A DNA stretch of 64,000 nt, from NCBI GenBank assembly GCA_964640535.1, contig CAZXFS010000003.1:3173-67172 (forward strand), written 5' to 3'. Shown piece after piece: positions 23,158 to 25,752 of this stretch. The position numbers were made by a program, and so were the translations under genes. The first letter of the stretch is position 1, and each line of letters opens with the position of its first letter. This DNA is from an uncultured Prevotellamassilia sp. (GTDB taxonomy: Bacteria > Bacteroidota > Bacteroidia > Bacteroidales > Bacteroidaceae). A model generated the notes under the pieces. It worked only from the letters and a program-made list of their open reading frames with translations. It was not told the DNA's origin and searched no databases.

Positions 23158-23400
23158 AAGAGGAGGTACAGTATTTCTATAATGGGTAGTTCTTATTCTT
23201 CGGTTCATGTAAATACGCCGACTACCTGCCGGACAACGTCGAAGGAGAAAAAGAAAAATCAGAGCGAACAACACGTCCGCCTGACACGGGCAACAAACAA
23301 CAGAGAGTGGTTGTCATCGCCCGATGCCGTGATGAGAGCATCACTCGGGGTGGTCAACGAAAGCGACCTCCCTCCATAGGAGAATGTCAACTGACGGGAG

Positions 23401-23408
23401 CAAAGATA
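23401..23408 (-). promoter_or_regulatory. -7 box TATCTTTG upstream of the metalloprotease gene
   Basis: Minus-strand TAnnTTTG match ~245 nt upstream of the ATG at 23157. Confidence 0.3.
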
Positions 23409-23538
23409 GGTATTTTGCGAGAAAAACATCCCCTCATCACTTTTTTTTGCATTCCTCGGAGAGGGACGTCGCCGTCTCTCCCGGAAGCGACGCCCGCCAC
23501 TTCCCTCCCCATCTCCTCGTCGGCCCTCCTTTTCCGCG

Positions 23539-24097
23539 CTTATCGTGAAGCGACACCCCTCAAAAACCGTGCGCGAAGGCCGCGAGAATGCGTTTTTTTC
23601 ACCGCCCCTTGCCTCGCCGACGAGCAGCGCAACGACGAGGCTCCGGCGAGTGTTAAAAAAGCGCCGTTTTTGCCATATGCTGTCAAAAACGCAGTCGAAC
23701 GAGGCCGCCACACGGCCCCAACAAGTCCGGGAGAAATTCCAACAAGTCCCGGACTTGTTTCAACGAATCAGGGACTTGTTCCGCCCCGCCCCCTCCGCCG
23801 CGTCCCCGTCCCTCTTCTTTCGAGATTTTAACGTTATCGGAGCGTTTCGGGGGAACCCAAAAGCGACTCTTTGTCCTCTCCCAAGAGGGAAAAACGGCGG
23901 CCCGGCCCATCCTCGGCGTAAAAATCTGTCAAATCCCGGCACTCAAATGTATTTCTTCCTTAATTTTGTGTAAACTTTTCCATATTCCTGTGAAAGTTTG
24001 CAATGGTTTAGGTTTCTAAACCGCCCGATTTACATTTTTCCAACCTCTTCCGCGTGTCAATATTTTTCGGCAAAAACCACGGAGTTTCTAAAAAAAA
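23539..24097 (+). repeat. copy B1 of a ~0.55-kb interspersed non-coding element
   Basis: Block-by-block alignment by eye with 39288-39826 and 51424-51982. Blocks are CTTATCGTGAAGCGA..GAAGGCCGCGAGAAT; GTTAAAAAA..CCGTTTTTG(A/C)CATAT..TGTCAAAAACGC (23665-23691); three 21-bp units at 23720-23782; a TTTAAC block; the AT-rich TAATTTTG module; and GCGTGTCAA..TTTTTC. Confidence 0.85.
23961..23968 (+). promoter_or_regulatory. -7 box TAATTTTG inside element B1, candidate guaA promoter
   Basis: Exact TAnnTTTG ~230 nt upstream of the guaA ATG. It is the only such motif I see between the element and guaA. Confidence 0.35.
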
Positions 24098-24198
24098 TGA
24101 GGGGGAGGCCAAAAAAATCAGTAATTTTGCGGAGAAGTTACACAGGGAGGACGCGGAAGAAGTTTTTTCGCCCGCCGCCGCCCACTTATTCTTACCAG

Positions 24199-25752
24199 AT
24201 GCAACAGAAAATCATCATCCTCGACTTCGGTTCCCAGACCACGCAGCTCATCGGCCGCCGCGTCCGCGAACTGGACACTTTCTGCGAAATCCTGCCTTAC
24301 AACAAGTTTCCCCACGACGACCCGTCGGTCATCGGCGTCATCCTGTCGGGCTCGCCCTACAGCGTCTACGACCCCGAAGCCTTCCGGGTAGACCTCTCCG
24401 CCATCCGCGGACGCCTGCCCATCCTGGGTATCTGCTACGGTGCCCAGTACATGGCGCACACCTTCGGGGGCAAGGTAGAGCCCGCAGGGAGCCGTGAGTA
24501 CGGCCGCGCCAACCTGGCATGGACCGACCACGACAACATTCTCTTCAAGGGCTTCGACGAGGGCTCGCAAGTGTGGATGAGCCACGGCGACACCATCACC
24601 GCCATCCCGGAAGGGTTCCGCTGCATCGCCTCCACCGACAAGGTGAAATATGCCGCCTATCAGGCCGACGGCGAGCCTCTCTGGGGCGTACAGTTCCACC
24701 CCGAGGTGTTCCACTCTCTGCAAGGCACCCAACTGCTGCGCAACTTCGTTGTCGACGTCTGCGGCAGCCGCCAGGACTGGAGCGCCGCCTCGTTTGTCGA
24801 CACCACGGTGGCACAGCTCAAGGAGCAGCTGGGCAACGACCGCGTCATCCTGGGCCTCTCCGGCGGCGTCGATAGCTCGGTAGCCGCCGTTCTGCTCCAC
24901 CGCGCCATCGGGAGCAACCTGACGTGTATCTTTGTAGACCACGGCATGCTGCGCAAAAACGAATTCCACGACGTCTTGCGCGACTACGAAGGCCTCGGAC
25001 TCCACGTCATCGGCGTCGACGCGAGCGAGAAGTTCTTCAGCGAACTGGCCGGCGTGACGGAGCCCGAGCACAAGCGCAAAATCATCGGCAAAGGCTTTGT
25101 CGACGTCTTCAACGCCGAAGCACAGAAGATTACCGACGCCAAGTGGCTGGCACAGGGCACCATCTACCCCGACCGCATCGAGAGCCTCAACATCACCGGG
25201 AAGGTCATCAAGAGCCACCACAACGTCGGCGGACTCCCCGAGAAGATGCACCTGCAACTGTGTGAGCCTCTGCAGTGGCTCTTCAAAGACGAAGTGCGCC
25301 GCGTGGGACGCCAGCTGGGTATGCCCGAACACCTCATCTCGCGACACCCCTTCCCCGGCCCCGGCCTCGCCGTGCGCATCCTCGGCGACATCACCCGCGA
25401 GAAGGTGCGGGTGCTCCAGGATGCCGACGATATCTTCATCCGCGGACTGCGCGACTGGAAAGTCACCGATGCCGACGGCCACGAGGACTCCCTCTATAAC
25501 AAGGTATGGCAAGCCGGCGTCATCCTCCTCCCCGTCAAGAGCGTCGGCGTGATGGGTGACGAACGCACCTACGAGCGCGCCGTAGCCCTCCGCGCCGTGA
25601 CGAGCACCGACGCCATGACCGCCGACTGGGCTCACCTGCCCTACGAGTTCATGGCCAAAGTGTCCAACGATATCATCAACCACGTCAAGGGCGTCAACCG
25701 CGTCTGCTACGACATCTCCTCCAAACCGCCTTCAACGATCGAGTGGGAATAA
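24199..25752 (+). CDS. guaA: GMP synthase (glutamine-hydrolysing)
   Basis: 517-aa product from an internal ATG ([13 protein letters not shown]). GATase1 segment [12 protein letters not shown]-pyrophosphatase SGGVDSS, C-terminal ...PPSTIEWE. Confidence 0.97.

Follow-up and report, generated by a model that had tools for sequence, protein, structure and literature searches.

Repeats dispersed between genes are well known from Proteobacteria and Firmicutes. The BOX elements of Streptococcus pneumoniae and the Correia elements (CREE/NEMIS) of Neisseria are dispersed, modular, non-coding repeats located between genes at operon boundaries; they measure 100-350 bp, end in inverted sequences, number approximately 100 copies or more, and are able to provide promoters, IHF-type protein-binding sites, or sites of RNA processing; a TA target duplication is a further feature of Correia elements. 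REP sequences are 20-40-nt palindromic units with a conserved 5′ tetranucleotide, and PATEs of the IS200/IS605 type carry similar subterminal hairpins at both ends.

Repeated sites of other kinds are also relevant here. Cooperative operators of dimeric helix-turn-helix (HTH) proteins include the 17-bp operators of phage CI/Cro and the paired ARG boxes with 21-bp spacing; operators of these types overlap promoters and adjoin the regulator gene. Iteron origins and plasmid centromeres have phased repeats beside AT-rich segments, and the core sites of tyrosine recombinases contain overlap regions of 6-8 bp.

To our knowledge, few dispersed intergenic repeats have been described in Bacteroidota beyond Porphyromonas. 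In Porphyromonas gingivalis, BrickBuilt and MITEPgRS/MITE464 are intergenic repeats of modular build (Klein et al. 2015, PMC4596501). BrickBuilt has a leader of up to 285 nt, 1 to approximately 23 head-to-tail repeats of a 23-nt unit, a tail of up to 318 nt, and IS5-type terminal inverted repeats (TIRs; GAGACCTTTGCA), and the head-to-tail repeats of the BrickBuilt/MITEPgRS group are 23 or 41 nt long (PMC4596501).

Extent and Genomic Setting

The window (the whole 64-kb stretch of DNA that was analysed) contains three intergenic copies, B1, B2, and B3, of an element of approximately 0.57 kb, all on the plus strand (Table 1); a first-pass annotation had claimed three such copies, and alignment and BLASTN confirm them. 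Robust homology is confined to the first ~260 bp (blocks I-III), where the BLASTN-significant segments lie (23536-23793, 39285-39548, and 51424-51680; 74%-78% identity within HSPs, E 1e-33 to 1e-52); over the whole core alignment of 245 columns, the copies are 70%-77% identical. In the tail of ~300 bp, the copies have only short colinear boxes (IV-VII) in common and are weakly similar, with one significant HSP between B2 and B3 and none for B1. The left boundary is sharp, marked by an invariant CTTATCGTGAAGCGA that occurs in the window at the three copies only. A profile of the three elements (nhmmer) detected no further or degenerate copy in the 64-kb window.

Pfam analysis of the flanking genes gives the setting of each copy. 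B1 is bordered on the left by a gene for an M12B metalloprotease that starts at 23274 on the minus strand, and on the right by guaA, which is on the plus strand with its ATG at 24199. The left and right neighbours of B2 are a glycogen-debranching gene (start 38765) and purC, whose 3′ end faces the copy (stop 39911); those of B3 are lpxD (start 51157) and a SusD-like gene, likewise with its 3′ end toward the copy (stop 52305). All four are on the minus strand. The right end of B2 runs into the purC terminator hairpin (39828-39880). The neighbouring minus-strand units are those named in the first-pass annotation, namely the metalloprotease, the glycogen cluster (GDE, GT4/GT5, GH57), and lpxD-lpxC/fabZ-lpxA, and the element does lie upstream of each, at 265, 523, and 267 bp from the gene starts rather than the ~300-520 bp first given. 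The three intergenic regions that bear the element, and these three only, measure ~0.9-1.15 kb, an excess of approximately 0.6 kb over the usual length; most of the window's remaining intergenic regions span 15-400 bp. None of the copies has a linked regulator gene, and no common feature unites the genes around the copies in the window and those around the metagenome-assembled genome (MAG) loci discussed below. GC skew follows gene orientation here and is thus not usable for orienting replication.

The copies begin ~100-170 bp upstream of three minus-strand promoter regions. Perfect −7 boxes were mapped at the B1 and B2 sites (Table 1), whereas the lpxD operon promoter on the B3 side has near-consensus −7 boxes only; the nearest mapped −7 boxes are 330-390 bp from the array (block III) and 130-170 bp from block I. 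These distances are far for a simple operator, which tells against reading the element as a binding platform. Ahead of guaA, block VI had been described as the only promoter-like motif, but a second perfect TAATTTTG, outside the repeat, is better placed and more likely to be the promoter of guaA. No −24/−12 motif was found, and the idea of a sigma-54 promoter served by an upstream activator site was dropped.

Table 1. Positions in the window of the three copies, their component blocks, and nearby promoter motifs
Feature	Position	Strand	Description
Copy B1, whole element	23539-24110	+	Alignments; nhmmer profile match 23539-24109; right end fuzzy
B1 block I	23539-23589	+	Box I-a CTTATCGTGAAGCGA 23539-23553; box I-b GTGCGCGAAGGCCGCGAGAAT 23569-23589
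B1 block II	23652-23692	+	GTTAAAAAA-N3-CCGTTTTTG quasi-palindrome, then CAAAAACGC
B1 array	23720-23780	.	61-bp dyad; central 19-bp palindrome 23741-23759
B1 tail	23814-24067	+	Box IV, 32-nt B1-specific insertion, box VI, box VII
B1 box IV	23814-23832	+	CTTCTTTC-N7-TTTAAC
B1 box VI	23961-23968	+	TAATTTTG
B1 box VII	24053-24067	+	CGTGTCAA + T-run
Copy B2, whole element	39288-39875	+	Alignments and nhmmer profile
B2 block I boxes	39288-39302; 39319-39339	+	I-a; I-b
B2 block II	39402-39442
B2 array	39470-39530	.	Same 61-bp dyad
B2 tail boxes	39564-39582; 39678-39686; 39771-39787		IV; VI; VII
Copy B3, whole element	51424-52015	+	Alignments and nhmmer profile
B3 block I boxes	51424-51438; 51455-51475	+	I-a; I-b
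B3 block II	51539-51579
B3 array	51607-51688	.	61-bp dyad 51607-51667 and fifth degenerate unit GTAGTTGTT 51680-51688
B3 tail boxes	51722-51740; 51836-51844; 51929-51945		IV; VI; VII
Metalloprotease −7 box	23401-23408	-	Perfect TATCTTTG; between gene and B1, outside repeat
Glycogen-operon −7 box	39115-39122	-	TAAATTTG, analogous
Second perfect TAATTTTG	24122-24129	+	70 nt upstream of guaA ATG, outside repeat

Conserved Blocks and Fixed Spacing

Block III, at first described as three tandem 21-bp units, proves to be a 61-bp dyad built from four invariant AACAAGTCC sites at 21-bp spacing, two in direct and two in inverted orientation; the middle pair forms a perfect 19-bp palindrome (9-1-9, with a 1-bp centre). 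This is the geometry of an operator array, with half-sites at ±21 bp from the palindrome, and protein binding is predicted. The 9-mers are identical in 12/12 instances, with no compensatory or G-U-type variation, and the 64-kb window holds just one other perfect AACAAGTCC. The fifth, degenerate unit of B3 lies exactly 21 bp beyond the dyad, and unit number thus varies in a 21-bp step. Comparison by eye disposed of three other assignments: against a restriction-modification C-box, the AGTC/GACT halves here have the opposite order; against a PurR box, which the proximity of guaA and purC might suggest, the half-sites here are reversed and stand apart; and against an integron attC site, the would-be R boxes do not match GTTRRRY.

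Upstream of the array, the segment between boxes I-a and I-b reads CACCCCTC in B1 and its reverse complement, GAGGGGGTG, in B2 and B3. The block II palindrome, TGACATATACTGTCA, is perfect in B2 only; the stem changes in the other copies (TGCCA...TGTCA in B1, TGACA...CGGCA in B3) are not compensatory. An A/T tract is also swapped, with A6 in B3 versus T6-7 in B1 and B2. The half-sites of block II resemble the TTATCAAAAACC of a Hin/Gin hix site, but their orientation is reversed (by eye), and this candidate was set aside. All blocks had been thought common to the three copies, which is so for I, II, III, IV, and VII and not for an exact block V or a perfect block VI: the exact GAAAGTAAAA of block V is present in B3 only, with GAAAAGTAAAA in B2 and no block V in B1, and block VI matches the Bacteroidetes −7 box perfectly in B1 and imperfectly in B2 and B3.

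Distances between boxes are held with little or no change. The block I to block III distance is 181/182/183 bp in the three copies, as first stated, within which I-a to I-b measures 36/37/37 and I-b to II 77/77/78; the distances from II to P1 (19 bp) and from P1 to site 1 (49 bp) are exact in all copies, and that from VI to VII is 91/91/91 bp. Seven invariant runs of at least 9 nt (9-20 nt, identical in all three copies) were observed versus 1.5 expected, a number reached in 0/10,000 shuffles, while the spacers are 36%-60% identical (without gaps), close to the ~27% in shuffled controls. With spacers near saturation and boxes and spacings fixed, the earlier view of a maintained architecture rather than a recent duplication stands. 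The comparison shows blockwise purifying selection on the element; three copies give little power to tests of selection or covariation. A DNA-protein assembly would require just this, the retention of distances while the intervening sequence changes.

Relatives and Sequence Collections

In two relatives (L017 and L018), the orthologous SusD-lpxD spacer was identified and the element is absent from it. Where relatives carry a 91%-93% identical guaA, other genes lie upstream of it and the spacers are short, so the B1 site is not comparable. Arrays of AACAAGTCC resembling block III were found in intergenic DNA of an Alloprevotella sp. (L002) and of another MAG (L004/L005), with extra half-sites 21 to ~40 bp away and the rest of the element not in common. 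These arrays were found by exact 19-mer seeding, so their E-values overstate independence; they would fit a conserved binding protein with portable sites. An apparent match of block I (CGTGAAG boxes) in L004 was dropped, since the local alignment is no better than shuffled controls.

The exact 19-mer palindrome occurs at five loci in three MAGs in the genome contig collection, in three metagenome contigs (all in coding DNA, consistent with chance), and in no viral contig; approximately two chance matches are expected in 596 Gb. Of these matches, L001, L003, and L009-L011 resemble the element in little beyond the 19-mer seed. BLASTN of B2 against plasmid and phage collections gave no match, and a literature search for the palindrome found no paper. 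The element is best read as lineage-restricted.

Coding Potential, RNA Structure, and Mobility

The element had been called non-coding, and this is borne out: in tblastx comparisons the six frames score alike, none of them is free of stops in all three copies, and six-frame translations of the three cores, a query that could also have caught spurious ORFs annotated on further copies, gave no homologue and no transposase-derived coding remnant among 5.8 billion proteins. The first-pass annotation had also recognised no known RNA family and proposed an Rfam scan, which agrees with it; Rfam 15 at gathering thresholds has no match in the window, and scans of the three copies at E-values up to 10 returned differing sub-threshold noise of hairpin type, none of it common to the copies.

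The copies could nevertheless be non-coding RNA genes of one family, on either strand, an alternative that we judge unlikely and that takes two forms: a minus-strand RNA of ~250-300 nt that starts in the AT-rich tail, includes the array as a hairpin, and ends at the block II hairpin and TTTTTT, or a plus-strand sRNA driven by box VI. Structured RNAs, too, can have conserved boxes set apart by segments that vary in sequence and not in length, and the folding energy of the core is far lower than that of shuffled controls on either strand (z = −6.7 and −4.4), but this signal comes almost wholly from the array palindrome, which is strand-symmetric and invariant and would also fold as RNA or single-stranded DNA. 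Block II forms an 11-bp hairpin followed by TTTTTT on the minus strand; the T-run stands 4-5 nt from the stem, however, and stem pairs are broken without compensation in B1 and B3. Perfect minus-strand −7 boxes in the tails of B1 (23944-23951) and B3 (51847-51854) would suit the first form, yet their positions are non-homologous and B2 has none; for the second form, plus-strand box VI precedes a T-run by 91 bp in all copies, against which its sequence is imperfect in B2 and B3. RNAalifold on the three sequences reports changes on both sides in five pairs (plus strand) and nine pairs (minus strand), with many pairs broken, while folds of the I-b to II spacer differ between copies (z from −2.0 to +0.85) and no consensus structure emerges for the VI-VII interval of the tail (−2.3 kcal/mol). 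An RNA would lose its pairing through the T6-to-A6 and G-tract-to-C-tract swaps, which keep the A/T and G/C tracts in the duplex and not the hairpin. Because the hairpin changes are not compensatory, the spacers have no common fold, and the tract swaps keep duplex features only, we lean toward action at the DNA level rather than as RNA.

Dispersal itself could be explained by a decaying non-autonomous transposable element (MITE-like or other) with no present function, the boxes being leftover transposase-binding or other cis sites, which we regard as rather improbable. It would account for copies in unrelated, oversized intergenic regions, for absence from the orthologous site in relatives, for the variation in 21-bp unit number and the copy-specific insertions, and for two short-read Logan contigs over B2 (L007 and L008) that end 22 nt inside the element; Bacteroidales are moreover known to carry leader-repeat-tail intergenic repeats such as BrickBuilt (PMC4596501). 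Against it, no reverse complement of the left end CTTATCGTGAAGCGA was found in the whole window with up to 3 mismatches allowed, a repeat search of the window found no inverted repeat flanking the element, and the IS5-type TIR of BrickBuilt has no match within two mismatches in the three intergenic regions. No target-site duplication was seen by eye at the sharp left boundary (the right boundary is fuzzy), and no transposase, Y1 transposase included, is encoded in the 64 kb, in keeping for this window with what had first been reported; the protein searches described above likewise found no coding remnant. Neutral decay, moreover, cannot give seven invariant runs of 9-20 nt together with indel-free spacers approaching saturation. 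Subterminal hairpins of PATE type were not found (the left end has a 3-bp hairpin only, the right end is AT-rich, and the ends are unlike each other), and a REP/BIME assignment was rejected, the element being 0.57 kb and not a short palindromic unit. Some other specialised DNA site from an integrated plasmid or integrative element, put to new use in the chromosome, such as an iteron origin, a partition or centromere-like site, or a recombination (att/res) site, is a very unlikely source. The phased ~21-bp direct and inverted repeats beside an AT-rich A-tract segment do resemble iteron origins and plasmid centromeres, the copies are 12-16 kb apart in one orientation, and at L001 the 19-mer lies beside iteron-like AACCCTTCA repeats upstream of a gene for a VapE/DUF3874 primase-like protein. 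The stretch that L001 has in common with the element is only ~25 nt, however, and may match by chance; housekeeping genes occupy the segments from one copy to the next; rep, par, integrase, and resolvase genes are absent from the vicinity of every copy; no DnaA box, parS, or IHF consensus is present in the elements save a single-mismatch DnaA-box-like TTTTCCACA in B2; and the 1-bp centre of the palindrome is unlike tyrosine-recombinase cores.

A Putative Protein-Binding Cassette

The reading that we favour, tentatively, is of a lineage-restricted dispersed cassette that would have been copied long ago to at least three intergenic sites and since kept by selection as a double-stranded DNA platform, with fixed geometry, of predicted protein-binding sites. 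Protein binding, the identity and oligomeric state of the protein, the regulatory effect, and the mode of spread are points that we infer from the sequence. Spaced at 21 bp, or two helical turns, all sites of the array would lie on one face of the helix; the 9-1-9 palindrome would be the kind of site bound by a dimeric HTH protein, and the outer half-sites would allow a higher-order complex such as a tetramer. The platform would also have the invariant GC-rich boxes I-a and I-b at fixed distances upstream of the array, with block II, flanked by A/T tracts, probably bending the DNA or binding an accessory factor; downstream of the array, the AT-rich tail with its −7-like box may mean that the cassette also supplies a promoter. 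Its role would be that of an upstream regulatory or architectural nucleoprotein module for the metalloprotease gene, the glycogen operon, and the lpxD operon.

The cassette looks like a working cis-element, not junk, since its boxes are perfectly conserved at exact spacings across nearly randomised spacers; such clear marks of selection set it apart from other dispersed repeats. A bolder proposal, which we consider distinctly improbable, is that it may represent, in Prevotellaceae, a type of chromosomal cis-acting nucleoprotein element not described before: a TIR-less portable module whose AACAAGTCC array would recruit a dedicated protein, which would coordinate the expression or the local chromosome organisation of unrelated housekeeping operons (lipid A, glycogen, secreted protease), and whose spread would leave no inverted ends or target duplications. 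If the array is a specific protein site, it would provide a handle on a regulator or DNA-organising factor in Alloprevotella and related Prevotellaceae, and the cassette, if the reading is true, would be an example of regulatory sites moved around as a unit. It accounts for three oversized intergenic regions and for at least one assembly break in short-read data; its wider importance is uncertain, the evidence being three copies in one MAG.

Comparison with Known Systems

Like BOX and Correia elements, the cassette is dispersed, modular, non-coding, and intergenic; at 0.57 kb, with three copies seen and no inverted ends, it differs from both, and sequence comparison with the Rfam and BLAST collections gave nothing to relate it to them. 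With the CI/Cro and ARG operators it has in common an odd-centred palindrome (9-1-9), sites on the same face two turns away, and A/T tracts; in contrast to these operators, more than 300 bp separate the array from the nearest mapped −7 box, and it has no linked regulator gene. With iteron origins the cassette shares phased repeats and an A/T-tract region.

BrickBuilt differs from the cassette in having TIRs; the sites of the cassette instead form a fixed array, two of them direct and two inverted, its box spacing is strictly conserved, and there is no evident sequence similarity in the parts given in PMC4596501. Both are strictly intergenic, occur in the order Bacteroidales, and are restricted to one species or lineage; both vary in unit number and carry promoter-like sequences, possibly bidirectional; and both have the order leader, repeats, tail, which in the cassette are a ~181-bp leader, 21-bp units, and a ~300-bp tail.

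Three Copies of an Intergenic Element

Alignment with MAFFT and BLASTN bears out the first-pass annotation's account of three intergenic copies in the same orientation (B1, B2, and B3, all on the plus strand). Strong homology covers the first ~260 bp (the core, blocks I-III), where BLASTN matches are 74-78% identical (E values 1e-33 to 1e-52) and the 245-column three-copy alignment has an overall identity of 70-77%; in the ~300-bp tail (blocks IV-VII), only short colinear boxes are common to the copies, with one significant match, of 42 nt, between B2 and B3. The left edge is sharp and is formed by an invariant box, I-a, restricted to the three element sites in the window. Invariant columns make up 157 of the 245 in the core and include seven runs of 9-20 nt, where chance would give 1.5 (no shuffle among 10,000 had as many), and the earlier figures of 181, 182, and 183 bp between blocks I and III are exact on re-measurement. 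The three-copy observation is real and beyond chance. An nhmmer profile built from the copies found no others in the window; short Logan contigs from the same organism break off 22 nt into B2, as a repeat would lead one to expect.

Genomic Context

The window is housekeeping DNA from an Alloprevotella-like Prevotellaceae genome; in relatives labelled Alloprevotella sp. by their sources, guaA is 91% and lpxD 82% identical. Neighbors of the copies were assigned by Pfam scans (see table). Most intergenic regions in the window measure 15-400 bp, and the three that carry the element are the long ones (0.9-1.15 kb). The minus-strand genes have Bacteroidetes-type -7 boxes (TAnnTTTG) in the interval before the element, perfect beside B1 and B2; upstream of lpxD there are near-consensus boxes only (CAATTTTG), judged by eye. 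These positions place the start of the element ~100-170 bp upstream of the minus-strand promoter regions. On the other side of B1, block VI had been taken for the only promoter-like motif before guaA, a claim contradicted by a second perfect TAATTTTG (24122-24129) 70 nt ahead of the ATG.

The -7 box at B2 is the sole good one for the glycogen operon (minus strand) and lies ~340 nt upstream of the debranching gene start, implying a long GC-rich leader (38766-39122), which contains an implausible 82-aa ORF (38850-39098). Immediately right of B3, a 35-nt unit (GAT..CCTCCCCGCTCCCACCGACGTCG.CA) is repeated 62 bp apart (52069-52165); a similar GACGTCGCC core also occurs left of B1 (about 23466-23476).

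The window contains other repeats. A 38-nt inverted pair, 84% complementary and 3 kb apart (17363-17400 and 20430-20467), has between its arms the trigger-factor gene (17669-19048, minus strand) as well as a 299-aa ORF (19045-19944) that has no Pfam match and lies in a low-GC stretch (48% GC at 19-20 kb). Between convergent genes, an inverted repeat of 30 perfectly matched bp around a 5-nt loop (33903-33967) probably acts as a terminator in both directions, and a very strong one. A 64-bp C/T-rich unit is tandemly duplicated almost perfectly (98%; 42957-43084) between the DUF5715 and class A penicillin-binding protein genes. The gene for a Cthe_2159-family carbohydrate-binding protein (30613-32571), followed by a MarR-family regulator gene (32587-33030), has internal ~75-108-bp periodic repeats (GGCGGCACC...ATCACC), the source of direct-repeat families D2 and D3.

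Architecture and Conservation

Block III, described in the first pass as three tandem 21-bp units, is instead a dyad of direct and inverted sites (the array), the inner pair forming a perfect 19-bp palindrome (9-1-9). Its 9-mers are identical in 12 of 12 cases, with a single other perfect 9-mer in 64 kb; the left 12-nt spacers are conserved and the right are not. In B3, a fifth, degenerate unit (GTAGTTGTT) follows exactly 21 bp beyond. The block II palindrome (TGACATATACTGTCA) is perfect in B2 alone. Two strand swaps, an A/T run and a 9-nt segment that is reverse-complemented in B1, are small events in an otherwise colinear repeat.

Layout, spacing, and neighbors of the element copies, with a second modular repeat from another genome
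Feature	B1	B2	B3	Remarks
Whole element (+)	23539-24110	39288-39875	51424-52015	
Strong homology	23536-23793	39285-39548	51424-51680	BLASTN
Left neighbor (-)	M12B metalloprotease, start 23274	glycogen debranching gene heading GT/GH57 cluster, start 38765	lpxD-lpxC/fabZ-lpxA, start 51157	
Right neighbor	guaA (+), ATG 24199	purC 3' end (-)	SusD-like gene 3' end (-)	
-7 box, minus-strand gene	23401-23408	39115-39122	around 51284-51330	
Block I				boxes I-a CTTATCGTGAAGCGA and I-b GTGCG(C/T)GAAGGCCGCGAGAAT, both invariant
Block II				GTTAAAAAA-N3-CCGTTTTTG, quasi-palindrome, CAAAA
Block III (array)				61-bp dyad; four AACAAGTCC 9-mers, two direct and two inverted, 21-bp spacing
Box IV				CTTCYTTC-N7-TTTAAC
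Box VI	TAATTTTG	imperfect	imperfect	AT-rich
Box VII				CGTGTCAA and T-run
I-a to I-b (bp)	36	37	37	
I-b to II (bp)	77	77	78	
II to P1 (bp)	19	19	19	P1, spacing landmark
P1 to array site 1 (bp)	49	49	49	
Palindrome to IV (bp)	73	73	94	B3 +21, one additional unit
IV to VI (bp)	148	116	116	32-nt insertion in B1
VI to VII (bp)	91	91	91	
Strand swap 1	T6-7	T6-7	A6, 51479-51484	
Strand swap 2	CACCCCTC, 23554-23561	GAGGGGGTG, 39303-39311	GAGGGGGTG, 51439-51447	
Other modular repeat				Alloprevotella sp. CTOTU42098 MAG, L002 4640-5010 and L003 2690-3060; arms ACGCGCGCG..TTACAGGGGAATTGCA..TGCTGTCA

Segments separating the boxes have an ungapped identity of only 36-60% (~27% in shuffled controls), so the copies are old. 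The pattern indicates purifying selection on boxes and spacing, with spacers near-free to vary, in agreement with the maintained architecture proposed earlier.

Relatives and the Orthologous Site

Among species-representative genomes, the 19-mer palindrome occurs at five loci in three MAGs; it is absent from IMG/VR, and its three JGI metagenome matches, all within coding DNA, are consistent with chance. In 596 Gb, about two matches to the 19-mer would arise by chance. The three-copy profile aligns over 57-100 nt around the array at three of the loci (L002, L004, and L005). At L002 (Alloprevotella sp. CTOTU42098), a second ACAAGTCC lies 21 bp upstream, together with a sequence close to the block II palindrome (TGACAGATACTGTCA); L004 and L005, in one MAG, have more ACAAGTCC-N-GGACTTG palindromes or half-sites at distances of 23-40 bp. 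Block I is not shared with the MAG loci, and their flanking genes have nothing in common. L002 and L003 are copies of one further modular repeat, distinct from the element; it has inverted arms of ~50 bp and contains the AACAAGTCC palindrome, and in L003 it includes four tandem 22-bp units (CACTACCGCGGTACCCTCACGA). Given these repeats and the arrays at the other loci, the AACAAGTCC array seems to be a portable module carried in this group's intergenic repeats. CACGAAG-rich repeats lie near the L002 and L003 repeats. At the remaining locus, L001, iteron-like AACCCTTCA repeats in both orientations (1040-1140) adjoin the palindrome, and a VapE/DUF3874 primase-like gene lies downstream; an integrative element may have its replication region here.

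Two relatives (lpxD 80-82% identical) retain the gene order SusC-SusD-[spacer]-lpxD-lpxC/fabZ-lpxA-PRiA4-miaA-PBP; their SusD-lpxD spacers (544 and 2003 bp) contain neither element nor motif, which makes B3 lineage-specific. This spacer varies greatly in length among relatives (544, 1147, and 2003 bp; L017 5457-6000 against L018 3998-6000), and the longest includes a 165-aa ORF with no Pfam match. Plasmid and phage collections gave no match to the element. In the libraries searched it is undescribed, known only through three copies in one MAG and array-only relatives in two others.

Function and Alternatives

Protein coding is excluded: tblastx scores are similar in all six frames, every frame has stops in some copy, and a concatenated six-frame query matched none of 5.8 billion proteins, in agreement with the original non-coding reading. 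A family of noncoding RNA genes is unlikely. The minus strand of block II is terminator-like, -7 boxes lie inside the tails, and both strands of the core give good folds (z = -6.7 and -4.4); this fold signal, however, stems from the array palindrome, which is invariant and strand-symmetric. Changes in B1 and B3 break the block II stem uncompensated, the I-b to II spacers lack a consistent fold (z -2.0 to +0.85) and the VI-VII interval a consensus structure (-2.3 kcal/mol), and Rfam yielded no family at threshold and unrelated hairpin noise in relaxed scans of each copy, in answer to the search suggested earlier. For three sequences, too few for proper covariation, the folding results tend to speak against a new structured RNA. 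Both strand swaps preserve duplex features and not pairing, and the balance favors an element that functions as double-stranded DNA.

A decaying, functionless non-autonomous transposon would explain the dispersed copies and the empty orthologous site, but is rather improbable: it cannot account for boxes without a mismatch and spacers free of indels where spacer sequence is close to saturation, and no terminal inverted repeats (TIRs), target-site duplications, or transposase were seen in the window. Phased repeats and an A/T-rich segment recall an origin, centromere, or recombination site of mobile-element descent; with no rep, par, or recombinase genes, no DnaA box or parS, and a core geometry wrong for a tyrosine recombinase, we consider this very unlikely.

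We tentatively prefer, at somewhat under even confidence, a dispersed cassette, old and confined to one lineage, that is maintained as a platform of fixed geometry for DNA-binding proteins. The 9-1-9 palindrome would fit binding by a putative dimeric helix-turn-helix protein, and the outer half-sites, two turns off on the same helix face, would permit a higher-order complex. Boxes I-a, I-b, and II keep fixed distances, which would suit accessory sites or bending; A/T tracts flank block II. Because each copy lies a short way upstream of a minus-strand promoter region, the cassette may have an upstream regulatory or architectural role, with a presumed effect on those genes. The AT-rich tail may contribute promoter activity, as shown for BrickBuilt of P. 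gingivalis (PMC4596501). Some means of spread must be supposed; it is quite doubtful that the cassette serves an undescribed Prevotellaceae DNA-binding factor as a portable nucleoprotein module, spreading without TIRs.

Comparison with Known Systems

Of described systems, BrickBuilt/MITEPgRS of P. gingivalis comes nearest; it shares with the element its bacterial order, leader-repeat-tail design, intergenic location, lineage restriction, and promoters, but has IS5-type TIRs and head-to-tail repeats, both sought and absent here. BOX and Correia elements are more loosely comparable. In its geometry the array is like the operator sets that dimeric helix-turn-helix proteins bind cooperatively; unlike these sets, the array is distant from promoters and unlinked to a regulator gene. 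On these comparisons we class the element as a modular dispersed intergenic repeat, outside any named family.
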